Shown piece after piece: positions 40,415 through 61,037 of a stretch of DNA of 64,000 bases. The DNA is from Rubripirellula sp. Lineage in GTDB: Bacteria > Planctomycetota > Planctomycetia > Pirellulales > Pirellulaceae. The stretch lies in contig OZ244207.1 in assembly GCA_965216875.1 (NCBI GenBank), forward strand, positions 5,472,001-5,536,000, in the 5' to 3' direction. Numbering within the stretch: the stretch's first letter is position 1; every line of letters begins with the position of its first letter. The notes beneath the pieces are model-generated. The model saw nothing but the letters and a program-made list of their open reading frames with translations, was not told the origin of the DNA and did not search any database. The position numbers and the translations under genes are program-made.

Positions 40415-42181
40415 TTAAGGATTCCAGCCCATGGCGGAGATCAACCAGTCCGTCAGCGAGCTCACAGGAGCCGACGGTTCGGCATAGGACCACATGTTGC
40501 GGACCAGGTCGGTCATCAGCATGCCGCCCATGCAAAGGACAAAGATGATCATCACCAAAGTGATGCATTGCAGGATCGTGAACGGCACTTCGTAGCTGGC
40601 CGCTGCCACACCACCGACGGCTGCGACCGCGGTGTCTTGAACTTGGACGCTATCGTCGCCCATCGACAATGCGTCGCCAACCGAAACGGGTTCACCAGGT
40701 GCTTCTTCAGCAAACCCACCCATGTCGTCGGCAAAGCCACCTTCTTCGAATTCGACCGGTTCAGCGATGGCCGAATCTTCAACTTCAATGACTTGCGAGC
40801 CACTTTCGATGTCGGCTTCGAGACCAACGCCCGACGGTGACAACTGAAACTCTTCGTCAGCTTGGAAGTCGACCATCGACCCGTCGCTTCCAGGCCCACT
40901 CTTTCCACTCGAACCACCTTCACTCAGTTCGGCGCCGAGGTCGAGAGCAGAGATGCTGCTGCCAGCCAAATCGAGTGGCTCACTTTCAAGTGACAAACCA
41001 CTGTCCGACGGACTCATCAAGTTAATGCCGCTGTCACCCGCTACCGAAATGTCGCTGCCAGCGCTACTGATCACCAAGTCATCGTCGTCATCGGCAATCA
41101 CCAAGTCGTCATCATCAGCAAGTGCATCGTCATCTTCGAGCGATGAAAGATCGGATTCGGCGAGTGCGTCCGCACCAATGCTGCTGCCGAGTCCGGAGGA
41201 GGCGAGCAAGCTTTCACTGTCGCCCGAGATCAATCCACTGCCCTCTTGTTCGGCGCTCAAGAGATCCAGTTCGCTAAGGACGTCAGCGCCACGCGAACCA
41301 CCTTGGATGTCACCTGGTTCGTCAAGTGAGTCCATCAGCTCAAGGCTGCTTGCGCCCGCTGCGTTTGCGGCCGAACCGCCGCCAACACCAATGTCGCTTC
41401 CGATCACGTCGAGATCACTCTCGGCCGCACCGATCACTTCTTCGCCACTGTCTTCTTCATCAACGGGACCCGCGAAACTCAAATCGCTTTCGCCCTTGAG
41501 TGGGATGTCGTCGCCAATGTCGACTTGGCTCGTACCGGAACCAGTCCCGCTTCCTGCTTCGGCCAAGACGTCCGATTCCGAAACGGCATCAGGCTCGGCG
41601 GACAGCAGATCCGATTCCGAAACGCCATCCGCTTCGGGAGCCAAGACATCAGGATGTGATTCGGCGATTTCTTTGAGTTCTTCGTCGGTCACCGGGCCAG
41701 TGCTGCCGGCGTTGGGTTCGATCGCCAAATCGAGCTGAGCCGAGTCGTGCATGATTGCAGGATCTTGGAGCTGCAATTCGCCGGAGTCGATTTCGAGTAG
41801 ATCGTCGGCGCTACTTTCGAAATCAAGATCGCTATCACTGGCGACCACGGCGACATCACTTCCTTCGCCTTCCGAAGCCACCAAGTTGACGTCGCTACCA
41901 CTGCCTGGTTGAGAGGGTTCTTCACCAATCCCGAGGTCGCTGCCTTCGTCGCCACCGATGATGTTGCTGCCCGAGGCAGTCATGTCGGTGTCGTTGACCA
42001 AAACACCGCTTCCGCCAGCAGCCAGGTCGTCTTTGAGTCGTTCAATCTCGGAGTCTGGAAACTTCCAGCTCGCTCCGTCCCGGAACCCGCGTACCTGTCC
42101 TTGGCTTCGCAGATCAACCAATTGCTCGGGGCTAATTCCCAGCTGTGCGGCGGCTTCCTCGAGAGAGAGATAATTGGCCAT
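40415..42181 (-). CDS. HTH (excisionase/MerR-like) protein with long acidic linker and C-terminal TM
   Basis: YLSLEEAAAQLGIS...GFRDGASWKF...IE; ~480 aa D/E/S/G-rich; hydrophobic ITLVMIIFVLCMGGMLM near the C-terminus. Confidence 0.85.
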   Translation of the reverse strand: MANYLSLEEAAAQLGISPEQLVDLRSQGQVRGFRDGASWKFPDSEIERLKDDLAAGGSGVLVNDTDMTASGSNIIGGDEGSDLGIGEEPSQPGSGSDVNLVASEGEGSDVAVVASDSDLDFESSADDLLEIDSGELQLQDPAIMHDSAQLDLAIEPNAGSTGPVTDEELKEIAESHPDVLAPEADGVSESDLLSAEPDAVSESDVLAEAGSGTGSGTSQVDIGDDIPLKGESDLSFAGPVDEEDSGEEVIGAAESDLDVIGSDIGVGGGSAANAAGASSLELMDSLDEPGDIQGGSRGADVLSELDLLSAEQEGSGLISGDSESLLASSGLGSSIGADALAESDLSSLEDDDALADDDDLVIADDDDDLVISSAGSDISVAGDSGINLMSPSDSGLSLESEPLDLAGSSISALDLGAELSEGGSSGKSGPGSDGSMVDFQADEEFQLSPSGVGLEADIESGSQVIEVEDSAIAEPVEFEEGGFADDMGGFAEEAPGEPVSVGDALSMGDDSVQVQDTAVAAVGGVAAASYEVPFTILQCITLVMIIFVLCMGGMLMTDLVRNMWSYAEPSAPVSSLTDWLISAMGWNP

Positions 42182-42290
42182 TCGTCTATTCGACTCCGAT
42201 CGATCGCGGGTGCGATGGTGGTGAAAAGTGGACGGGGGCTGACAGTCGAAACCGCCAACGCGTCAAGTTTGATTACCCGTCTATACCGCG

Positions 42291-42698
42291 TCACCCCTTC
42301 GGTTTGCCGATTCGTCGAATATCCTCGGGCAAAGGTGAGGTGGCGTTGAGTTGTAGGGAAAAATCAGCGTCGATGGGCCGACTGCTGACCAGCCGGATCT
42401 TGCCCGACCTATCGATATGATACACAGCCATCCAAGAATTTCCGGTATTTACGAGGGTAATTGTCTGAGTTCCTGTGCCGTCCACGTGGGAAAAACCGAT
42501 CATGTCGCCCGCGGCACCTACCTGGCTGGTCGGCTGTGCACGAGCAACGGCGGCGGCTTGAGTGGTCGACCAACGCGGCCCTCCCCCCAGATTGGCCGAA
42601 TCCTCCCCTGAACCCTGCGGGGTCTGGCTGGTTGCAACCGTTGCCGCAACTCCCAACAAAATCGCAGTCAATATGGCCAAATGGGGTCGAATGGACAT
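42291..42698 (-). CDS. Small exported hypothetical protein
   Basis: Signal-like N-terminus; C-terminal MAVYHID..GKIRLVSSR...D...P.PEDIR. Confidence 0.7.
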   Translation of the reverse strand: MSIRPHLAILTAILLGVAATVATSQTPQGSGEDSANLGGGPRWSTTQAAAVARAQPTSQVGAAGDMIGFSHVDGTGTQTITLVNTGNSWMAVYHIDRSGKIRLVSSRPIDADFSLQLNATSPLPEDIRRIGKPKG

Positions 42699-48254: not shown

Positions 48255-49853
48255 GTGAGCATCGATTGGAATGACGCGATGGGCGATTCGCAAGCAGCGA
48301 ACCAACCCGAACGGATTTCAAAAGACTCCCTTGGCACTGGCGGATTCCTTTCCGCCTCTGCTGGCGTCACGCTGACCATCCTGTTCTACACAGCGGTCTA
48401 CTTCATCCCTTGGGCACCCCTGCAACGCTACTTCCTTGGTCACCCAGTCGCGATCGCCGCGACCGGACTCTTCTTCATCGCTCTTTCCGTTTTGGTCAGT
48501 AAGCGACTCGCCATTCTCGACCAGCAAAGTCGGCTGGCGACGCTTCATGACGAAGCCCTTCGCCCTAACCACGACGCTGAAACCCCCGCATCCAAGTGGC
48601 TTTCGGAAAACGACGCTGGCCATGTCGCTCGTCGCTGGTTGCTCGACCTCGGCAAGCTGCCGAGCGCAACGCGTAATTCTCGGCTCGTACAACGACTCGA
48701 GGAATTGCTCCATCGCCAATCGCAACGGGGCACTGCCAAGCACCTGGCAGACGACTTGCGAGAACTCTCCGGGCGCGACCTCGATGCTGCTCACGACTCG
48801 CTTGGCCTTGTGCGAATCATCGTCTGGGCGATTCCGATGCTTGGCTTCCTCGGGACAGTGATCGGTATCACTCAAACCCTTGGCGGCCTCGACTTTTCAA
48901 ACGGAACAGCCGCCGTCGACAACTTGAAAAGTGGTCTCTACGTTGCGTTCGACACGACCGCCCTTGGCTTGGTCTTGTCCGTGGTCGCCATCTTCCTGCA
49001 GTTCCCTGTCGAACGCAGTGAACAACGCCTGCTCGCGCAAATCGACACGCGAGTCGGCAACCTGGCGTCCAGTTGCTTGCCGAGCGATGAAGCGTCGGAC
49101 AACCAAACCGTCCTGATCGCTGACCTTTGCAAAGGTGTCCAAGCGGCGGTCGCCGAGTCGCTTGATAACCAAACACGCTTGTGGAAAGAGACGATCGATG
49201 CCGCCCAGCAACAGTGGCAATCGGCTCACGACCACAATACCAATCGCTTGGCCGAAGCGTTTGAACTCACACTCGTGCCCGCCCTGATGGAGCATTCTGA
49301 TGCGCTGGCCGACTCGTCAAAGCAAGCCGCAAACCAGCTTTCGATTGAGAGTGAAAAGTGGCAAGCGATGATGAATGATGCCTGCGAGAAACTTGAAGCT
49401 GCCAATCACGCTGTTGCGGATCGACTGGCCGAGAATCTCGACTCGGCGCTCAAACCAATGCTTGCTGATCACGCGGAAGCCATCGGCACGAGTTCAAGTG
49501 ATGCCGCCGGGCGTCTGGAAAAGACGTGGGATCAATGGCTCGAGTCGATTGACTATCACTCGGGTGCTCTGGTCTCGCAACAACAAACGTTGACGCGTCA
49601 GTTCGAGGCTCTGACCGAAACACATGATCGCGCCGACAGCATCATTGCACTGAACAGTCGCATTGATGAAAACCTCACCAAGTTGGATGAGACAAATCAG
49701 GCGATCGACGAAAGCGTCAAAAGCGCCGCTGGTGACGGCATGGCTGATGCAATGCGTATCCTCGCCCGAGCCGTTGATGTCTTGTCGGCCCGCTTGGCCG
49801 AATCGTCTGAGACAGCATCGGTGGACGCGACCCAAGCAAGGAAAGCTGCATGA
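48255..49853 (+). CDS. MotA/TolQ/ExbB proton channel family protein with long helical C-terminal tail (start uncertain)
   Basis: IPMLGFLGTVIGI and GLYVAFDTTALGL channel helices; two N-terminal TMs; ~280-aa A/L/E/Q-rich tail. Confidence 0.9.
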   Translation: MSIDWNDAMGDSQAANQPERISKDSLGTGGFLSASAGVTLTILFYTAVYFIPWAPLQRYFLGHPVAIAATGLFFIALSVLVSKRLAILDQQSRLATLHDEALRPNHDAETPASKWLSENDAGHVARRWLLDLGKLPSATRNSRLVQRLEELLHRQSQRGTAKHLADDLRELSGRDLDAAHDSLGLVRIIVWAIPMLGFLGTVIGITQTLGGLDFSNGTAAVDNLKSGLYVAFDTTALGLVLSVVAIFLQFPVERSEQRLLAQIDTRVGNLASSCLPSDEASDNQTVLIADLCKGVQAAVAESLDNQTRLWKETIDAAQQQWQSAHDHNTNRLAEAFELTLVPALMEHSDALADSSKQAANQLSIESEKWQAMMNDACEKLEAANHAVADRLAENLDSALKPMLADHAEAIGTSSSDAAGRLEKTWDQWLESIDYHSGALVSQQQTLTRQFEALTETHDRADSIIALNSRIDENLTKLDETNQAIDESVKSAAGDGMADAMRILARAVDVLSARLAESSETASVDATQARKAA

Positions 49854-52003
49854 GCGGGCGTCGCCGCCAAACCCTTTCGCCCTCGCTGTTTCCGTTCCTA
49901 GCCGTGCTCGTTTGTACGCTTGGAACGCTGATCCTGCTGTTGGCGTTGGTAGCACAAAACGCGACCGAGACGGCCGAACAGACGGCGCGTGCTCAGCAAG
50001 AAGCTGCCCAAGAGGAAGCGGCCAAGCTTGCTGCGCAACAAGAGGCTGACGATGAAGCGTCACCACAAATGACTGCCGAATCGGTTGCCCAGTTGATCGA
50101 GGAAGAAACGTTTCGTGCAACGGAGTTGGTCTCGTTCCGCGACAAGCAAACCGGCAAGGTCGAAGAACGTCGCGACCAACTCACTCATCTCGAAGACCAC
50201 ATCACGCGACTGCGTGAAGAACTGCGATTACTCGAAGAAGAAATCGAGCACGCCAATGATGACAGCGCTCACACCAACGTGATCGACATCAATGCGGTCG
50301 AGGACATCAAGGACAAGATCAAGGCGGAAGAGCTTGCGATTTCGAGACTGAAGGATTCAGCCAAAAACAAGACGCCGCGTATCGTCATCGTCCCTCACGA
50401 TGGACCCAACGGAACAAGCCGACGGCCGATCTACTTGGAATGCACGCGAGACGGTGTCACGATCTGGCCAGAAGGAAATCAAATCAGCCAACTGCAAATG
50501 TCGGACTCGTTTGCGGACGCCAATCCACTTGATGCTGCGCTGCGAGCGATTCGTTACCACGCGTTGCAGACCTATGGCGACAACGTACCACCCTACCCTC
50601 TTTTGGTCGTGCGACCTGATGGGATCGAGAGTTATTCGGCCGCACGAATTGCGATGCAAGACTGGGACGACCAGTTTGGCTATGAGCTGGTTCCCGCCGA
50701 AGTCAAACTAGCCTTTCCCAACCCAGATCCCAATCTGAAGAAGCGGATCGATGTTGTCGTTCGCCAGGCTGCTGCGAAACAACATGCTCGCCACGCAGTC
50801 GCTCGCCGCCAATCCGGGTCGTACGGTCGCAGCGGCAAGTTCCCGGTCCTGTCGGCATCCGAACTGCGACGGCAAGGACGCGCGGGCGGCTATCAGCCGC
50901 ATCGTGAGCAATTCCCATCTGGCTACGGTCAATCGCCCTACCAACCCAAGCCGCCCATTGCTTCGGAGAACAGCTATTCGTCGGGAGCAAGGGGCAACTC
51001 ACCGAGCTACGGCTCGGGGTCGCAGTACACGCAAGGTCACGACAATGGCCAGGCGCAAGCCGAAGCCGTTCGTCGACTGGACCAACACCTGCGTGATGCA
51101 GCCAAGGAACTGCGAGAAAACAACCACAAGACCGCTCTTAGTCAAATCGCTCCCGGCGCAATGAGCCAAGAAGAACTTGCCAATCTCATGGCAGGCACTG
51201 CGGCTTCGATGGCCAACAACAGTGCTGGTGGACTTGAAAAAACGAATGGCGGACAAGCCAACGCGACGCTGCAAAGTACCCCTTCGGCCGATGTCGTGCA
51301 GCACAATCCCTATGGACCACCGTCCGACGGGCCTTCGGGTGACACTGCCCCAACACTCGACGCGCCGGCAAATGCGAACAACGAAGGCAGTGTCCATGAT
51401 TCGGCCGAAAAGGAAGGTGGTCAATTCGCGACTGGCCAAGGACAAGTCTCTGGAGGCAGTGACGAGTTTGCCCCCTCGACGAATTCCCAACCAATGGCTG
51501 CCAATGCACAAGGCGGCCAAGCCGGTGGAGCTCAATCAAGCGGCTCGCCATCGACTGAAATGGCAGCACAGGGAACCGATCCCTCGGTGATGGAACAACA
51601 AGATCAAGCACCGTCGATCAACGTCACGCATTCGGATGATCTCGTCAAACGCCAAGGACGCAACTGGGCATTGCCGAAGTCGCTTGCTGGCGTCTACGGC
51701 AACAAGATCGTTCGCTCGATCCGCGTTCTCTGTTACGAAGATCGTTTCGTCTTGTTGCCGGCGCGAAGTGACGGTGCCACGGAGATGTTCGGATTCTCGG
51801 ATGGGCACGTCAATCGCGCGACCCTGGAACTCGCAACGGCGATTCGTGACCGCATCGCTCAATGGGGCGCTGCTTTGCCAGGCGGTCGTTGGCAACCTCT
51901 TCTCGAAGTCGAAGTGATGCCGCGCGGCGAAGCAAGATTCCACCAGCTAAGAACCTTGATGAATGGCAGTGGCGTTGAGATTCGCGAAAGGAAAACCCGA
52001 TGA
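49850..52003 (+). CDS. Single-TM coiled-coil protein, divergent ExbD/TolR-like
   Basis: ATGA overlap with the motA-like gene; RRR..SLFPFLAVLVCTLGTLILL TM; coiled coil; low-complexity middle region. Confidence 0.75.
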   Translation: MSGRRRQTLSPSLFPFLAVLVCTLGTLILLLALVAQNATETAEQTARAQQEAAQEEAAKLAAQQEADDEASPQMTAESVAQLIEEETFRATELVSFRDKQTGKVEERRDQLTHLEDHITRLREELRLLEEEIEHANDDSAHTNVIDINAVEDIKDKIKAEELAISRLKDSAKNKTPRIVIVPHDGPNGTSRRPIYLECTRDGVTIWPEGNQISQLQMSDSFADANPLDAALRAIRYHALQTYGDNVPPYPLLVVRPDGIESYSAARIAMQDWDDQFGYELVPAEVKLAFPNPDPNLKKRIDVVVRQAAAKQHARHAVARRQSGSYGRSGKFPVLSASELRRQGRAGGYQPHREQFPSGYGQSPYQPKPPIASENSYSSGARGNSPSYGSGSQYTQGHDNGQAQAEAVRRLDQHLRDAAKELRENNHKTALSQIAPGAMSQEELANLMAGTAASMANNSAGGLEKTNGGQANATLQSTPSADVVQHNPYGPPSDGPSGDTAPTLDAPANANNEGSVHDSAEKEGGQFATGQGQVSGGSDEFAPSTNSQPMAANAQGGQAGGAQSSGSPSTEMAAQGTDPSVMEQQDQAPSINVTHSDDLVKRQGRNWALPKSLAGVYGNKIVRSIRVLCYEDRFVLLPARSDGATEMFGFSDGHVNRATLELATAIRDRIAQWGAALPGGRWQPLLEVEVMPRGEARFHQLRTLMNGSGVEIRERKTR

Positions 52004-53034
52004 GCAGGCGAGCAAAACGGTCAGCCCTCGAGTTGGGTCACGATTCGTTCTTGGACATCGTTGCCAATTTGGTCGGCATCCTGATCATCCTGGTCGTCGT
52101 TCTGGGCATGCAATCGACCGCGGCTATCGAAGACATCAAGGAAACGGCGGACCCCGAAACGCCTCAAATCGCGATGGCGTCCGACGAGCAGATGTCGCAG
52201 CTCGCCCAGCAATCGTTGCGCGCGGCAGCAGCACAAGCCGACTCGGATCGCCTCGAACGCATGTCGCTGAAATACGATGCGATGATCGGCGCACGGTCGA
52301 AAGAGCGTGCTGGACTGATGGACCTGATCTCGGTCGCGAAAGAGGCCTGGGATCAGCAAAAGCAGATGCTTGACCAAAAAGCCACCGAGCAAGCCGAGCG
52401 AAAGGTCGACCTCGAGAAGTCGGAAGAGCAATTGGTCAAACTTCAAGGCGAACGTCATCGCTTAGAAAACCAACCCGAAGACGTCGTTGCCGTTGCCCAC
52501 CTTCCGACGCCGATGGCCAAAACGGTCTTTGGCGACGAAATCCACTTTCGACTCAAAGACAACCGGTTGTCGGTGGTGCCTGTCGAGCGTTTGCTCGAAG
52601 AAATCAAGCAAGAGTTTGGTCGTGTGATCAACGGCTCAAGCCAAGGACGCATGCAATCGGCGGTGGGGCCCATTCGCGGTTACGTCGCACGCTATGAAAT
52701 GAACAAGGCGCGTGAACTGGTGCAACAGAATGGTCGCGTCGGAATGGCAACACGCGTGCAATTGGTTGGGATGCAAGTCGAACCGCTTAACGAACCGCAC
52801 GGCCAGCCGATTCAGCAAGTCTTGAAGAACCGCAGCCAGCTCGACATCGAACTTGCAGGTCGCGATCCGGCAAAGACCACGATCACCGTCTGGGTCTATC
52901 CCGACAGTTTCGCGGCCTTCCGCCATCTCAAAGAGCACTTGTACAACAAGGGCTTCGCGACCGCGGCACGTCCTCTGCCAAAGGATCGCATGATCACGGC
53001 GAGTCCAAATGGATCGCGATCGCGATCACAGTAG
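52000..53034 (+). CDS. Single-TM coiled-coil protein with intramembrane Asp, ExbD/MotB-like
   Basis: ATGA overlap; DSFLDIVANLVGILIILVV; coiled coil; C-terminal ITVWVYPDSF. Confidence 0.78.
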   Translation: MSRRAKRSALELGHDSFLDIVANLVGILIILVVVLGMQSTAAIEDIKETADPETPQIAMASDEQMSQLAQQSLRAAAAQADSDRLERMSLKYDAMIGARSKERAGLMDLISVAKEAWDQQKQMLDQKATEQAERKVDLEKSEEQLVKLQGERHRLENQPEDVVAVAHLPTPMAKTVFGDEIHFRLKDNRLSVVPVERLLEEIKQEFGRVINGSSQGRMQSAVGPIRGYVARYEMNKARELVQQNGRVGMATRVQLVGMQVEPLNEPHGQPIQQVLKNRSQLDIELAGRDPAKTTITVWVYPDSFAAFRHLKEHLYNKGFATAARPLPKDRMITASPNGSRSRSQ

Positions 53035-54971: not shown

Positions 54972-55523
54972 ATGACCGAATCCCACGCCCCACCCGAATT
55001 TGATCCTGCTGATGGCGAAAGCCAATGGCGGCAGGTGTACTCGGAGTGCGAGTCAGGTTTGCGATCGTTTTTGAGGGGCCGGCTCGGTCAAGAAGGCGAC
55101 ATCGACGACTGCCTCCAAGTGGTCTACGTCAAGATGATCGAGCAGGCTCGCAAGCCGGACCATCAGGTCGCTGTGGTCGCCCGTCGTGCGTGGCTATTCC
55201 GCGTCGCCGCAAACGAGGCGGCGGGTCTGTGGCGCCGCAAGGCTTCGACTGACAAGATGATGCAGCGTCACGGTGAAAGCGAAGGGCTTCAACCCGACGC
55301 ATCCGAAAAACTGATCCTAACTGAAACAACCCTTCAACTTCGCCAAGCCGTCAAGGCTTTACCCGAAGCGTTACAAGAAATCGTTCACCTTCGCATCGAA
55401 CGCGAACTGACATTCCAAGAAATCGCCGACCAGCTCGGCATCCCACTCGGAACCGCTTTGACACGAATGCGACGCGCTCTCGAGCAGCTCAAGAACGAAA
55501 TCAATTCCGAAAACGAATCATGA
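54972..55523 (+). CDS. ECF sigma-70 factor
   Basis: Region 2 DDCLQVVY..AWLFRVAAN; region 4 LTFQEIADQLGIPLGTALTRMRRA. Confidence 0.93.
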   Translation: MTESHAPPEFDPADGESQWRQVYSECESGLRSFLRGRLGQEGDIDDCLQVVYVKMIEQARKPDHQVAVVARRAWLFRVAANEAAGLWRRKASTDKMMQRHGESEGLQPDASEKLILTETTLQLRQAVKALPEALQEIVHLRIERELTFQEIADQLGIPLGTALTRMRRALEQLKNEINSENES

Positions 55524-56086
55524 ACCCCGTCGACAAAGACGACCGCCATCCGATATCTGACGCCGAGCAAGAACAATGCATGCGGTATCTGCTCGGTGAA
55601 CTCACAGGCCAGGAAAGCGCTGACTTTGAAGCGGCCCTGGCTGACTCGCCCAACCTCAATCGGGAACTTCACGAACAAAGCGAACTTCTTTGTGCTCTCT
55701 CGGCCACCGAAGCTTCGCACCAAACCGTCACAGCAACGCACCGAACGAGTTTTGCATTGCGTTTGGCGACGGCTCTTTCTGCACTGGCCGCCTGTCTCAC
55801 GGTTGCATTTGTCGGACTGACAGGCGACCGCTCGGGCGGATCAACGAAACCCACCACAGCGACCACCACCACAGCTACGCCTCATACTACTGGTGAAGAG
55901 ACGCTGATGATTGCCCAAGCCTGGGTGGTGCAACACGCGCAGTATCAAGTCGACGAAGGCCTTGCGATCGACACCGACTTGACATCCGAAAGTGATGACG
56001 TGATCGACGACGACTCTTCGATCGCTTGGATGGCAGCTGCATTCGCCGAAGAATCGAACACCCTTGGGGCAACCAGTGATGGCTAG
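55520..56086 (+). CDS. Putative membrane anti-sigma factor
   Basis: ATGA overlap with the ECF gene; RYLLGEL...FE..L N-terminal helix pattern; one TM (ALAACL). Confidence 0.75.
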   Translation: MNPVDKDDRHPISDAEQEQCMRYLLGELTGQESADFEAALADSPNLNRELHEQSELLCALSATEASHQTVTATHRTSFALRLATALSALAACLTVAFVGLTGDRSGGSTKPTTATTTTATPHTTGEETLMIAQAWVVQHAQYQVDEGLAIDTDLTSESDDVIDDDSSIAWMAAAFAEESNTLGATSDG

Positions 56087-56795
56087 ACTCGTTCTGCTGA
56101 TCTGCGCAGCGCTGATTGCCGCTGGCACTCCCACCGATTCCAACGCAATCGAACCGACGTCCAAGTCGATCAAAGGGGTCGCCCAGCGAGCCAAAGAATC
56201 GCGTCCTGCCGCTAAGGTCAATCCTGAGCTTGAAGCGGCAGCCCACGCACTGGTTGCGTCACACCTTCCTGAACTGAAGGAGTACCTCGCGCGGCTGCGC
56301 AGCAAAGACGCCAAACAATACGAACGAGCCATCACGAGTCTTGGACGCTCAGCAAAGCGTTTGGAAACGACCAAGAATCGCGACCCTCGCTTGTTTGAAA
56401 TCGAAGTCGAAACGCTCAAGGCCCAAAACGCAGTCGACTTGCTGACGGCCAAGTTGAAAGTGCGTGACAAGAAAGAAGATCGCAACAAGCTCCGAGCCGC
56501 GGTCGAACACCTTCAGCACTGGCAAATCACACGCAACGAATACGACATCTCGGTGTTGCAAGCTCGCCTCGAGCGAACGCAAAAACAACTCGACGCTTCG
56601 AAACAGCGTCTTCAAAACAAACGCAGCAACTTGGAAGAGCAAGTTGAAAAGCACTACGTCGGAATGCTTCGCAAGGCTGGCCGTTCCGAACCCAGTCGAG
56701 CCAAAGCACAGGAAGCCAAATCTGACGCAAAACCTGCAGAGAAAAAGCGACCCGCCGAGCGCAGAACTCCGGCTCGCCCCAAGACCAATTCCTAA
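56079..56795 (+). CDS. Exported basic coiled-coil hypothetical protein
   Basis: Signal peptide; K/R/E/L-rich helical body; overlaps the anti-sigma stop. Confidence 0.75.
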   Translation: MARLVLLICAALIAAGTPTDSNAIEPTSKSIKGVAQRAKESRPAAKVNPELEAAAHALVASHLPELKEYLARLRSKDAKQYERAITSLGRSAKRLETTKNRDPRLFEIEVETLKAQNAVDLLTAKLKVRDKKEDRNKLRAAVEHLQHWQITRNEYDISVLQARLERTQKQLDASKQRLQNKRSNLEEQVEKHYVGMLRKAGRSEPSRAKAQEAKSDAKPAEKKRPAERRTPARPKTNS

Positions 56796-56852
56796 CACTT
56801 GTTGTTAGCGCCCCACATTCCCCCGCCTCAAGCACTCGTTTCGGTAGCCACA

Positions 56853-59672
56853 ATGATTCAACGGACCTATCGATCGGCGTTTCGTCTCGCCCTCCTGATC
56901 GCCATCGGCCTGCCCTTGGCCGCGTCATCTGTCGTTCTCGCCGAACCCAACAACGCGACGACCATCGCCACAGCTTCGGCCAAGACGGACTCAACACCGC
57001 TCAGCCAACGATTTGCAGATGCAAACGGCAAGGAAGTCCCCGACTTTCAAAAACACGTGGTTCCTTTGCTCGGTCGACTCGGTTGCAACGGACGTGCTTG
57101 TCACGGATCGTTCCAAGGTCGCGGCGGCTTTCAGCTTTCGTTGTTCGGCTATGACTTTAAAGGCGACTTCGAGGCATTGCACGAAGAACACACCGGACGC
57201 GTCGACACGTCCGACATCGACGAAAGCCTGATCCTGGCAAAGCCACTTGACGCCGACATGCACGAAGGCGGCAAGCGATTCGATCAAGGAAGTTGGCAAC
57301 ACCATGTGCTGCGTCGCTGGATCGAAAGTGGCGGTGACTTCGAGCAAGAAATGCAATCGCTCGTCAAACTCGAAGTCACACCGGCAGAGATTCAATTCAA
57401 GAGCGACAACGAAAACGTTCAACTCAAGGCGGTTGCGCATTGGGAAGATGGCACCGTCGAAGATGTGACCGAGCTGTGCCGTTTCAGCAGCAATGACGAT
57501 GCGATCGCAGCCATCGACGACACCGGTCACATCCAATCCGGCAGCACAGGTGACACTCATGTCGTCGTTTACTACGACAACGCGGTGGTTCCCGTACCGA
57601 TTCTTCGTCCTGTTGGATCACTCGAGTCGCTCAAGCCTCAGAAGTTTGATCATCCTGTCGATCACCTCGTTCAACAGAAGCTCGACAAACTCGGCATCGT
57701 CGCCTCCGGAACCTGTACCGACGCCGAATTCATTCGACGTGCATCGCTCGACATCACGGGCATCCTGCCATCGGGCGAGCGAGTGCGTGACTTCCTCGCG
57801 GACGAGTCACCCAACAAGCGGGAAAAACTGATTGACGAACTGCTCAACTCGCCAGGCTATTCGGCTTGGTGGGCAACGCGTTTTTCGGATTGGACCGGCA
57901 ACAGCGACGAACAGCTCAACAACGTCCTTCCGGTTCGCGGTGCCGCGACCCGCATGTGGCACGAATGGCTTCGCAAGCGGCTTGATGACAACATGCCCTA
58001 CGACGACATCATCGAAGGCATCGTCACTGCGAAAAGCCGCCAACCCGACGAAGACTATCTCGAATACTGCAAGTCGATGACCGAGGCGTGCAAGCCCGGC
58101 AGCGAGAGCATTTTTGCAGAGCGTGACGGCCTGCCCTTCTATTGGGCACGTCGCAACTTTGCCCAGCCCGAGGAACGTGCGATTGGATTTGCCTACGCCT
58201 TCCTTGGTGTTCGCATCGAATGTGCGCAGTGCCATAAGCACCCCTTCGACCAATGGTCGAAAGACGACTTTGAGCAATTTGCTCAACTCTTCACACCCAT
58301 TCGCATGAACCAAAACCTTGTCGAAGCGGATGCTCGGGATGCACGTGATCAGTTGATCAAGGAATTGACGGGCGACAAAAAGCTTCGGGGCGGTGACCTG
58401 CGACGCAAACTTCAAACCGCAGCTCGAGACGGCAAAGTGGTTCCGTTTGGCGAGCTAACGGTGACCGTTCGCGGCGTTTCTGCGGCCCAAAAGCGTGCGA
58501 TTGCGGCCGCCAAAAAGAAAGGCCGCAAGCCGCCGAAGTTCAAAGTACCGCAAGGCAAGATTTTGGGTGCCGATGAACCGATTGAACTCAATCGCGACCC
58601 TCGCAGCGACCTGATGGCTTGGCTTCGATCAGCCGAGAATCCTTACTTTGCAAAAGCGATTGTGAATCGCGTCTGGAGCAATTACTTCGGTGCTGGAATC
58701 GTTGATCCAACCGATGATATGAATCTGGCCAACCCGCCAAGTAACGCTCCGCTCATGGATCACCTGGCGACGGAGTTCATCAAGAATGACTTTGACCTGA
58801 AATGGTTGCATCGCACGATCGTGACCAGCGAGACGTATCAACGAAGTGCGGACACGAACGAGACGAACGCCCACGATCGCGTGAACTACTCGCATCACGT
58901 TCCGCGGCGTCTTCCAGCCGAAGTCGTCTATGACGCGATTGCCTTGGCAACTGGCTCGGACGATGTCGCCGAAAAGATGCGAGGCGAAGTCGACGAGATG
59001 GCGATCGCTGAAGGCAAACCTCGCGTCCGCAATCGTCAAGAATTCGCGTTGGAAGTCTTTGGACAATCGATTCGCGAAACCAATTGCGACTGTGATCGCA
59101 CAAGTGACCCAAGTCTCCTGCAGTCGATCTACTTGCGGAACGACTCGGAAATGCATGATCGCCTCACCGACAAGAACGGCTGGGTCGCCCAGGCATGCAA
59201 AGAGCTTGGTGTCCCGGGCCCTCGTCCAACCAAAGCCGATCCACAGCGTGTTGCCATGCAACGACGCGCCGAAGGCTATCGCAAGCAGATCGTCAATCGA
59301 ATTCGCCAGTTCCACAAATTGCCAGAGCAACGAAAGGAAAAGGCTCGGCTTGGACTCAAGAAAGAATACAAGCGTGCAACGCAGAAGTTCGCGGAGTTTG
59401 GATTTGCGATTCCAGACTTTGACACATTGATTGACGACATCGGCTCGTGGAAAACGGTCGAACCAGCACAAGCAGCTGAAGGAACGACCGATTCCAAGAC
59501 CGTTCATGCGCTGGTCGAAGAGGCCTATCTGCGAACGCTCAGTCGTTATCCCGATAACAAGGAAACTGAGATTTCAGTCGCCTTCATCGAAGAATCCGAA
59601 TCGCCTGCCGAGGGCGTTCAATCTCTGCTTTGGGCATTGGTGAACACGAAAGAGTTCATCATCACCCACTAA
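56853..59672 (+). CDS. DUF1549/DUF1553 (PSCyt2/PSD1) protein with Ig-like domain
   Basis: GCNGRACHG, FIRRASLDITG.LP, FLGVRIECAQCHKHPF, NPYFAKAIVNRVW, WALVNTKEF. Confidence 0.92.
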   Translation: MIQRTYRSAFRLALLIAIGLPLAASSVVLAEPNNATTIATASAKTDSTPLSQRFADANGKEVPDFQKHVVPLLGRLGCNGRACHGSFQGRGGFQLSLFGYDFKGDFEALHEEHTGRVDTSDIDESLILAKPLDADMHEGGKRFDQGSWQHHVLRRWIESGGDFEQEMQSLVKLEVTPAEIQFKSDNENVQLKAVAHWEDGTVEDVTELCRFSSNDDAIAAIDDTGHIQSGSTGDTHVVVYYDNAVVPVPILRPVGSLESLKPQKFDHPVDHLVQQKLDKLGIVASGTCTDAEFIRRASLDITGILPSGERVRDFLADESPNKREKLIDELLNSPGYSAWWATRFSDWTGNSDEQLNNVLPVRGAATRMWHEWLRKRLDDNMPYDDIIEGIVTAKSRQPDEDYLEYCKSMTEACKPGSESIFAERDGLPFYWARRNFAQPEERAIGFAYAFLGVRIECAQCHKHPFDQWSKDDFEQFAQLFTPIRMNQNLVEADARDARDQLIKELTGDKKLRGGDLRRKLQTAARDGKVVPFGELTVTVRGVSAAQKRAIAAAKKKGRKPPKFKVPQGKILGADEPIELNRDPRSDLMAWLRSAENPYFAKAIVNRVWSNYFGAGIVDPTDDMNLANPPSNAPLMDHLATEFIKNDFDLKWLHRTIVTSETYQRSADTNETNAHDRVNYSHHVPRRLPAEVVYDAIALATGSDDVAEKMRGEVDEMAIAEGKPRVRNRQEFALEVFGQSIRETNCDCDRTSDPSLLQSIYLRNDSEMHDRLTDKNGWVAQACKELGVPGPRPTKADPQRVAMQRRAEGYRKQIVNRIRQFHKLPEQRKEKARLGLKKEYKRATQKFAEFGFAIPDFDTLIDDIGSWKTVEPAQAAEGTTDSKTVHALVEEAYLRTLSRYPDNKETEISVAFIEESESPAEGVQSLLWALVNTKEFIITH

Positions 59673-59720
59673 CCACCCCACTTTCTTCGCCCCAACCCTA
59701 CATTCACTTCCAAGACCTTC

Positions 59721-61037
59721 GTGAGTTTGAAGATGAAAATGCACAAAACGTGTGACGGTGTGAAACGTCGCGACATGCTCAAAGCAGGTGTCTTGACCGC
59801 CGGCGGTCTTACATTAAGCAACTACATGCAGATGGCCGCAGCGGGCCAGTTGCAATCGGGTCGCGCCGACCGCGCCATCTTTGTCGAGTTGCCGGGCGGT
59901 CCATCACACATGGACACGTTTGACCTCAAGCCTGACGCTTCTGACGAGTATCGCGGATCGTTCAATCCGATCTCGACCAAAGTGCCTGGCATTCAAATTT
60001 CGGAGCACCTGCCCAAACTCGCCTCGTGCACCGACAAGTTTGCGATCCTTCGCGGTGTCAGCCACACGTTGGCCGCTCACCGTTTAGGACGCGAATACGT
60101 CAACACTGGCAGCAAGCCGATTCCAGCACTCGAATACCCAAGTTACGGCTCAGTGTTGGCCAAAGAAGCACCAAGTTCTCCAGACATTCCAACCCAAGTC
60201 GCTGTGCCGCGAGCGAGCCAAGGGCCGGGCTTCCTAGGCATTCGCTACGCTCCGTTGGAAACGAATTCGACACCGTCGTTTGGCCAAGCATACTCCGTTC
60301 GCGGCATCTCCCTTGCGGGCGGTATCGGCGTTGATGAAGTCAAACGCCGCCAGGACTTGCTTCGCAGGCTCGACCGACGTTTTGCCAGCCTCGAAAAGAA
60401 CGATCAACTCCTTGATGGTTTGGATCAATTCGGCGAACAAGCCTACTCGATGATCACCTCGTCACGAGCACGCGAAGCCTTTGACATTTCGAAAGAGCCT
60501 GAGAGCTTTGCACGCCAATTCGGTGAGGACTCTTTCGGTCAAAGCTGCATGCTTGCCCTTCGTCTGGTCGAGTCGGGCGTCCGTCTCGTCACCGTGCAAC
60601 TCGGCGGTTGGGACACACATCGAGACAACTTCACCCGTTTGAAAGACAACAACCTGCCGAAACTCGACGCAGGTCTCAGCGGACTTCTCAACGGTCTCGA
60701 GCAGCGCGGCCTGCTGGAAACGACCGCAGTCTTTGTCACAGGTGAATTCGGTCGTACGCCGAAGATCAACACGCGCAGTGCCGAAGGCGGACGCGACCAC
60801 TACCCACGTTGCATGTTCATGTTGATGGCAGGCGGTGGTGTCCGCGGTGGTCAAGTGATCGGCGAAAGTGACGACACCGCATCGGGACCACGCCATGAAG
60901 GCATTTCGCCCGACGATGTCGCTGCCAGCTTCTACTACAACTTGGGAATCGATCCCAATATTGAGTACGACACGAGCACCGGTCGCCCCATCACGCTGGT
61001 GCGTGACGGCAACATCATCAAAGACTTGTTTGCGTAG
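59721..61037 (+). CDS. DUF1501 family protein
   Basis: Twin-Arg-like RRDML; GGPSHMDTFDLKP, LALRLVESGV, GWDTH, GEFGRTP, GRDHY. Confidence 0.93.
   Translation: MSLKMKMHKTCDGVKRRDMLKAGVLTAGGLTLSNYMQMAAAGQLQSGRADRAIFVELPGGPSHMDTFDLKPDASDEYRGSFNPISTKVPGIQISEHLPKLASCTDKFAILRGVSHTLAAHRLGREYVNTGSKPIPALEYPSYGSVLAKEAPSSPDIPTQVAVPRASQGPGFLGIRYAPLETNSTPSFGQAYSVRGISLAGGIGVDEVKRRQDLLRRLDRRFASLEKNDQLLDGLDQFGEQAYSMITSSRAREAFDISKEPESFARQFGEDSFGQSCMLALRLVESGVRLVTVQLGGWDTHRDNFTRLKDNNLPKLDAGLSGLLNGLEQRGLLETTAVFVTGEFGRTPKINTRSAEGGRDHYPRCMFMLMAGGGVRGGQVIGESDDTASGPRHEGISPDDVAASFYYNLGIDPNIEYDTSTGRPITLVRDGNIIKDLFA

Follow-up and report, generated by a model that had tools for sequence, protein, structure and literature searches.

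Rotation models of MotAB, ExbBD, TolQR and ZorAB assume two equivalent aspartates that alternate. Heterologous axles are already on record: in Myxococcus, one study predicts AglQS inside AglR5, giving an AglR5:Q:S complex with a heterodimeric axle (PMC11761067), and another predicts an Asp in both AglQ and AglS (PMC9389320). A tolQ-like gene with a heterologous pair of transpore-helix/von Willebrand factor type A (TPH-vWA) partners has been predicted to encode force transducers (Mol Biol Evol 2025, PMC12204202) and is the nearest idea in print to the genes considered here. For Zorya, PMC11946911 describes a homodimeric ZorB that carries Asp26 together with a peptidoglycan-binding domain, the effectors ZorC/D/E being linked; the accessible part of PMC12505986 calls the non-flagellar homologues structurally diverse and in that part makes no mention of heterodimers or coiled coils. 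We analysed three genes, called A, B1 and B2 throughout (Table 1), read from a 64,000-nucleotide stretch of Rubripirellula contig OZ244207.1, referred to as the window. They encode a MotA/ExbB/TolQ-family channel subunit and two different single-pass proteins, only the second of which keeps the aspartate of the motor axle, and this asymmetry is conserved. The trio is real, conserved and apparently undescribed, no description of it having been found by keyword search of the literature outside subscription papers and closed supplements. The original prediction presented it as a candidate new system, which is too strong because the AglQS heterodimeric axle and the tolQ and transpore-helix pairs are already published.

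The A protein matches Pfam PF01618 over residues 148-255 (expectation value (E) 1.9e-14, 54 bits against a cut-off of 22.9). Hydropathy places hydrophobic segments at residues 56-74, 177-195 and 222-240, and a fourth is likely near 24-43, below the threshold used. Both pore threonines are kept among homologues (T193 in 121/123 rows, T227 in 120/123), as is an additional conserved aspartate, Asp225 (117/123). After residue 244 the protein continues as a helical C-terminal tail, 281 residues long here with a median of 225, so that the channel helices and the tail of about 280 residues that had been predicted are both present. The predicted location of the tail is also counted as supported: by analogy with MotA, ExbB and ZorA, it would be cytoplasmic. 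Matches of A to ZorA, ExbB and TolQ models lay below cut-off. The best of those outside Pfam were to ZorA models (PADLOC ZorA2, E 4.8e-12; PDB 8qyk, E 0.0023), and the NCBIfam ZorA models gave 26.9 bits (cut-off 100) and 19.1 bits (cut-off 700), short of the score of the ZorA family.

The transmembrane (TM) helix of B1 carries the motif PFLAV and that of B2 the motif SFLDI, and a profile alignment of the TM regions places Ala18 of B1 on Asp19 of B2 (probability 93%). Judged by these aligned motifs the two proteins are paralogues, and their homology is bridged by cyanobacterial forms (hhalign 98%). The proton-binding slot of B1 holds Ala in 116 of 136 rows (Asp 5, Ser 4, other 4, gap 7), and Asp19 of B2 is found in 281 of 290, both row sets including a few paralogues and rows from the divergent family f102 described below. 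Thus, the replacement of Asp by Ala in B1 and its retention in B2, noticed originally in this single pair, is a conserved asymmetry. Other TM residues are conserved as well: Cys22 of B1 (122/136), and D15 (277/290) and N23 (281/290) of B2. B2, adjacent to A and single-pass with a mid-membrane Asp, has the layout of a motor-type B subunit. Neither B1 nor B2 has a family match above noise or cut-off in Pfam, NCBIfam or PADLOC, PF02472 (ExbD/TolR) included, and the absence of an OmpA domain, claimed from the outset, follows from the lack of any above-cut-off Pfam match.

Several loci depart from this pattern. In one sub-clade of A (L039:9580-10902, L051, L250, L257), HFG replaces IGI after the first pore threonine and AFNTT replaces AFDTT, and in L039 and L051 the linked B1 carries an Asp (PLLDV, TFLDG). 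L049 also has a B1 with Asp, and its A is without both pore threonines. Changes of the kind seen in L039, L051 and L049 make compensation between Asp225 of A and the B1 slot possible. The B1 at L065:5290-8388 opens with the B2-type motif SFLDVLCN, which gives that locus an Asp in each B gene; the A gene of this locus, like that of L075 (two of 20 distant loci), is located elsewhere in the genome. A 1019-residue protein (P0218) with a B2 match at 684-1019 may have arisen by fusion of B1 with B2, or may be an artefact of read-through.

Outside the membrane both B subunits are modelled as helical stalks bearing small five-stranded ExbD-like domains. The AlphaFold2 model of B2 (predicted local distance difference test (pLDDT) 81) consists of the TM helix, a 96-residue helix at 62-157 and, at the end, an alpha/beta domain into which a long beta-strand element is inserted. 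That of B1 (pLDDT 68) has the TM helix, a helical stalk at about 36-175, a first domain at about 190-282, a linker and a second domain at 618-714. The linker (about 326-591) comprises some 270 residues modelled at low confidence and read as disordered, and its length ranges from 11 to 414 residues across 125 rows; stalk lengths are matched, with medians of 127 residues in B1 and 124 in B2. Of the long coiled coils foreseen in both proteins, the stalk helices are there, and the C-terminal half of B1 is instead mostly disordered linker. The three alpha/beta modules that had been noted as similar, two in B1 and one in B2, are homologous by profile alignment, the two B1 domains matching each other at 97% in hhalign. 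Domain 2 of B1 superposes on E. coli ExbD (8p9r; Z 7.0, root-mean-square deviation (rmsd) 2.4, 71/74 residues) and on TolR (5by4; Z 6.6, rmsd 4.8), and the first of these superpositions is compatible, at the level of models, with an ExbD-like fold of the B domains. Foldseek and VIA-wide structure searches with the whole B1 and B2 models were dominated by coiled coils or weak RNase-H-like matches, and the ESM Atlas gave unnamed clusters only, all below 0.9.

Those close relatives of B2 that carry a name belong to Pirellulaceae (for example Rubripirellula, Novipirellula and Rhodopirellula), and B2 is present in 40/41 genomes of the family and order. All 36 orthologous loci fetched (from 39 B2 matches outside the genome itself, the three others lying on fragments) hold A, B1 and B2 together, with A inverted in one (L039) and a B frame broken in two; the trio is therefore not a chance arrangement. 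Among 80 further loci, the trio is complete in 49/49 of those of at least 12 kb; in the 31 shorter ones it is complete in 21, lacks A in 8 and lacks A and B1 in 2. The synteny survey proposed with the prediction thus finds the three genes conserved together. Across 201 genomes of the class, B2 has a match in 166 (E 0.001) and A in 120 (E 1e-30). Both genes occur in 49/49 genomes of Pirellulales, 47/48 of family f19 (where B2 relatives are named Gimesia, Thalassoglobus and Schlesneria), 4/6 of f107 and, by strong matches, the same 12/42 of f103, each f103 search adding one weak match that the other does not share. In 251 genomes of the phylum, the B2 search gave 19 strong matches, all in the trio's own class, and 11 weak ones (E 1.4e-5 or worse) restricted to the N-terminal stalk region; no B2 relative was found in the viral contigs searched. 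Mostly present once per genome, the trio is near-universal in Pirellulales and in most other Planctomycetia; that almost all genomes of the order have a single strong copy is the pattern of a housekeeping system. A link to flagella was considered and rejected, as at least nine of the listed genomes have A and B2 yet no FliG_C match; in f103 only 1/12 FliG-positive genomes holds the trio, and its presence is independent of flagella. In the accessible source data for Planctopirus limnophila (PMC10632474), Plim_3131 (COG0811) and Plim_3133 (COG0848) appear in the sheet of presumed essential genes, an entry that is uninformative on the trio.

In a quick IQ-TREE phylogeny built from 120 channel cores after removal of 5 badly cut rows (mostly planctomycete, arbitrarily rooted, ZorA and AglR absent), one branch (Shimodaira-Hasegawa-like approximate likelihood ratio test 100, length 2.35) separates 57 trio-type A proteins, drawn from the main, paralogous, f102 and cyanobacterial forms, from 59 ExbB/TolQ-like sequences and four rows labelled MotA. 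A search for ZorA sequences to add to this tree found none on plasmids and none in 121 genomes of the phylum, a set in which the controls gave no match either. The genome itself holds 8 PF01618 and 9 PF02472 matches, none of the latter on B1 or B2, and has separate canonical ExbB and ExbD genes. With A placed outside the ExbB/TolQ and MotA clades of a tree without ZorA and AglR, the claim of a distinct, conserved three-gene module of the motor family holds.

Paralogous trios are present in many genomes, and the B1-B2 order is retained in all paralogue types. In type T2, B1 is shorter and its slot holds Ser in 11/13 cases and Asp in 2/13; type T3 has a short A and an Asp in both B genes (3/3 read). 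The Rubripirellula genome holds a T3 trio of its own outside the window, at G000:C1:3112327-3114981; in this locus (L252, G000:C1:3109284-3114981) the A protein has 306 residues and is preceded by genes for 312 and 695 residues. Three other T3 loci share a pair of upstream genes that encode about 430 and 980 residues. A type T2 A at L248:8923-10392 has a probable zinc ribbon, made of two CxxC motifs, at its start and before the membrane part.

A compact version is found in cyanobacteria. Among plasmids, A finds its best matches in cyanobacteria (Anabaena cylindrica pANACY.03, Microcystis NIES-2481 p1), with A proteins of 466 and 470 residues that include the tail, B1 of 153 residues with PFLSV or PFLSI, and B2 of 231-236 residues with SFLDI. 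Against the planctomycete profiles these trios score E 2e-52 (A), 1e-31 (B1) and 4e-22 (B2), and the compact B1 reaches Pfam ExbD at E 0.0036 and 17.8 bits, below the cut-off of 25.4. The B2 search yielded 473 homologues, whose names span many cyanobacterial genera, and 119 of the 120 that were aligned have the Asp. One compact trio carries the accessions WP_015217712, WP_015217711 and WP_015217710, and chromosomal copies in cyanobacteria include Chro_3765, cce_1740 and Ple7327_0585. Cyanobacteria thus carry, as read from these sequences, a stalk-less version with the same B1/B2 asymmetry, and the wide-periplasm axle originally proposed is no core property because the cyanobacterial B subunits have no stalk. 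All three cyanobacterial loci read adjoin defence genes, in a sample that favours such neighbours, since two of the three come from a plasmid-only collection, and in which two are close kin. One compact trio immediately follows a type III-B CRISPR cassette that includes a CARF-HEPN gene, and viperin is found further on (L261:5093-9283); another accompanies a second CRISPR-like cluster with genes similar to those of L261 (L266:4396-10928); the third sits inside an island of methylase, nucleotidyltransferase-SLATT pair, helicase and HNH genes (L262:1-11967).

The most divergent planctomycete form is that of f102 (49 genomes), which we tentatively take to be Isosphaeraceae. B2 is found in 47/49 of these genomes and B1 stands beside it in 24/25 loci read (by the motif-score criterion), both keeping a plain TM helix without the pore motif. 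At a pore-motif score of at least 25 bits, f102 has 0/24 B1 and 0/25 B2 (best 8.5), and other distant members 12/13 and 15/15, a score to be read with the caveat that cyanobacterial B2s reach only 20-21 bits despite a visible motif. Loss of A, suggested by a match in 1/49 genomes at E 1e-30, was rejected when a diverged, unlinked A was found: it is present in 28/28 further f102 genomes searched and in 0/4 f103 genomes lacking the trio, and no B gene lies within 15-kb windows around it (5/5). All 33 copies carry GTVEG and AFDSTL, with a Glu at the position of Ile195 in the window's A, and this Glu may replace the lost axle Asp. That the pore helices of A change where B1 and B2 lose their motif suggests that the three helices evolve together, and this linked change in all three proteins favours a physical complex. 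In the f102 loci L070:4295-5251, L071:4373-5137 and L072, a small vWA-like gene, so read from a DxSxS motif, is convergent to B2.

Beside the homology, conservation, asymmetry and distribution described above, we infer for the trio a 5:2 stoichiometry, a heterodimeric axle, rotation, and a role for Asp225, as well as its target and function. The reading we prefer, in which belief and doubt are about evenly balanced, is an A5:B1:B2 proton-driven envelope complex with one axle Asp, ExbD-fold tips and a cytoplasmic rod of tails, serving housekeeping envelope mechanics. A single inner-membrane complex of 5:2 type would consist of a five-A ring around one B1 and one B2 helix, the proton-binding aspartate would come from B2 alone, and Asp225 of A may stand in for the one missing from B1. 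Ion flow would turn or ratchet the A ring against the axle. B1 and B2 would reach outward on a helical stalk of about 100 residues (the B2 helix would span about 14 nm at 1.5 Å per residue), with domain 2 of B1 adding reach on its long flexible linker, and the ExbD/TolR-fold tips could grip a cell-wall or outer-membrane target directly, no TonB or TolA being encoded alongside. Inside the cell, the A tails would bundle into a rod, either to anchor the ring or to transmit its movement to a cytoplasmic partner whose gene is unlinked. In Planctomycetia, the job of such a machine would most likely be the positioning or remodelling of the inner membrane relative to the wall and outer membrane.

A number of observations weigh against this reading. 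The standard model has an Asp on both axle helices, and f102 has one on neither B subunit; f102 shows that an axle Asp is unnecessary for retention of the trio genes. Something other than proton-driven rotation may be what has been conserved, since f102 keeps all three genes with no Asp in either B1 or B2. No strong matches to A and B2 are found in 30/42 f103 genomes, and the trio is therefore dispensable for some members of the class. Across some 60 loci the operon shows no conserved fourth gene, and upstream neighbours recur in at most 12. As to the tips, uS11, YqgF and other RNase-H-like folds tie with ExbD for domain 2 of B1 (Z 7.0-7.2), and ExbD and TolR are missing from the top 50 structural matches of the B2 domain; the modelled fold of B1 domain 2 is therefore compatible with ExbD/TolR, homology being unproved by structure alone. 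Profile comparison of the B modules with ExbD, proposed as a check on the prediction, came out no better than its control: hhalign of the three window domains against 32 planctomycete ExbD sequences gave 8.6, 3.0 and 1.2%, and the reversed control 9.7%.

The same evidence bears on other explanations. The trio could be a Ton-like energiser, with A5:B1:B2 powering outer-membrane import either via a transducer of TonB-like or vWA type encoded elsewhere or by a direct pull on a transporter. We consider this unlikely, as the roughly 60 loci show no conserved TonB, vWA, tetratricopeptide repeat or receptor gene next to the trio, the genome has canonical ExbB and ExbD genes of its own, and A falls outside their clade; to our knowledge, moreover, ExbB has no long tail like that of A. 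Alternatively, A5 and a homodimer of B2, which would supply two aspartates, could make up the active motor, B1 being an inactive plug or regulator in A5:B1-B1 or A5:B1:B2 "off" complexes. The characterised 5:2 motors of the family all have Asp on both axle helices, as predicted also for AglQ and AglS (PMC9389320), and the B1 slot tolerates Ala, Ser or Asp. However, B1 and B2 are translationally coupled 1:1, their stalk medians match, their order is kept in all paralogue types and the pore motif is lost jointly in f102, so that we regard a B2 homodimer as decidedly unlikely.

A Zorya-like envelope sensor, a motor that would respond to phage damage by signalling via the A tail to cytoplasmic effectors encoded elsewhere, would fit the ZorA models as best non-Pfam matches of A, the recruitment of effectors by the long cytoplasmic tail of ZorA (PMC11946911) and the defence genes beside all three cyanobacterial loci seen. 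Two of those loci are from the plasmid-only collection and two are close relatives, however, and A scores 26.9 against the NCBIfam ZorA cut-off of 100, with neither an OmpA-type ZorB domain nor ZorC/D/E at the locus. The defence role once envisaged is unlikely for the planctomycete copy because it is mostly single-copy, near-universal in the order and without a conserved effector neighbour. Overall we find such a sensor quite improbable, and more plausible for the cyanobacterial form. Finally, the ring and stalk could form a non-rotary trans-envelope strut or gated channel, a spacer or mechanosensor for which ion flow is secondary. Family f102, which keeps B1, B2 (47/49) and A (28/28 searched) without an axle Asp and with the genes unlinked, is what speaks for it. 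The near-invariant Asp of B2 elsewhere (281/290, and 119/120 in cyanobacteria) and the retention of both pore threonines argue against a strut, as does the new Glu of f102 A, which may replace the axle Asp, and this is to us the least probable of the explanations.

A wider proposal, which we advance tentatively and with more doubt than confidence, is that the trio represents a separate 5:2 branch in Planctomycetia and Cyanobacteria, with an obligately asymmetric one-Asp axle linking a periplasmic stalk to a cytoplasmic rod without TonB or TolA, with the carboxylate moved to the ring in f102, and with a stalk-less cyanobacterial form that may serve phage defence. The one-Asp axle of such a branch would act as a one-site ratchet, not as an alternating two-site rotor. 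If this is true, the one-Asp motor, the two-Asp T3 paralogues of the same genomes and f102 with its ring Glu would form a natural series for a test of mechanism, and the cyanobacterial B subunits of 153 and 231 residues would offer a small complex suited to cryo-electron microscopy. For planctomycete cell biology, three conserved, unannotated envelope proteins become candidates for handling an unusual periplasm.

At the locus itself, the coupling of the three genes by overlaps is as first described, both junctions reading ATGA. The start of gene A was revised: position 48255, given earlier, is an in-frame upstream GTG, the ATG lies at 48279, and a further alternative start is possible at TTG 48201. 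Seven neighbouring open reading frames were scanned against Pfam and matched hydrolase, helix-turn-helix (HTH) or extracytoplasmic function (ECF) sigma/anti-sigma families, or no family; TonB, Tol, Zor and flagellar families are absent from these seven, in line with the statement that no TonB, TolA/Pal, Zor or flagellar gene is adjacent. Upstream, at 40415-42698 of the window, lie an acidic HTH_17 protein of 588 residues with a C-terminal TM helix and a secreted protein of 135 residues, both of which turn up ahead of the trio elsewhere in the order (11-12 loci). Downstream, at 54972-61037, are an ECF sigma factor, a zf-HC2-like anti-sigma factor, a helical 243-residue protein and two more large genes, of typical planctomycete type and with conservation limited to the genus.

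Table 1. The trio and its gene junctions, in positions of the 64,000-nucleotide window
Feature	Position	Strand	Description
Gene A	48279..49853	+	Open reading frame, 524 amino acids from ATG, MotA/ExbB/TolQ-family channel subunit
Gene B1	49850..52003	+	Open reading frame, 717 amino acids, single-pass protein
Gene B2	52000..53034	+	Open reading frame, 344 amino acids, single-pass protein
A-B1 overlap	49850..49853	+	ATGA stop/start overlap, sequence
B1-B2 overlap	52000..52003	+	ATGA stop/start overlap, sequence

Set against the known systems, the trio shares with ExbBD/TolQR a PF01618 channel with pore threonines and a B1 domain 2 that superposes on 8p9r, in a tie with other RNase-H-like folds, and on 5by4, but its A forms a separate clade, its B1 and B2 fall below PF02472 and make a heterologous pair, and a stalk, a duplicated domain and the A tail are added; TonB and TolA/TolB/Pal are not among the conserved linked neighbours in the roughly 60 loci. 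Zorya is similar in that ZorA, an A subunit of the 5:2 motor family, has a long helical tail in the cytoplasm and provides the best weak hidden Markov model matches of A. It differs in its ZorB-type domain (B1 and B2 have no ZorB or OmpA match, and the two PF00691 matches of the genome lie away from the trio) and in its linked ZorC/D/E, no effector neighbour being conserved in those loci, whereas the distribution of the trio is housekeeping-like. Unlike flagellar MotAB, the trio has no OmpA domain and its presence does not follow that of FliG_C. With Myxococcus AglRQS it shares one A gene and two different TolR-like B genes, although AglQ and AglS are both predicted to have an Asp where the B1 of the trio has Ala, and Glt partners were not seen at the trio. 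Closest is the TPH-vWA system, where a TolQ-like pentamer gene goes with a pair of large, dissimilar transpore-helix partners, canonical tolR/exbD being absent, and direct force transfer by the axle has been proposed (PMC12204202). There, both partners keep the Asp, end in vWA domains (neither B1 nor B2 has a vWA match in Pfam) and occur mainly in Proteobacteria and Verrucomicrobia, whereas the trio combines one partner without Asp, tips of ExbD/RNase-H topology on helical stalks, and a long A tail.

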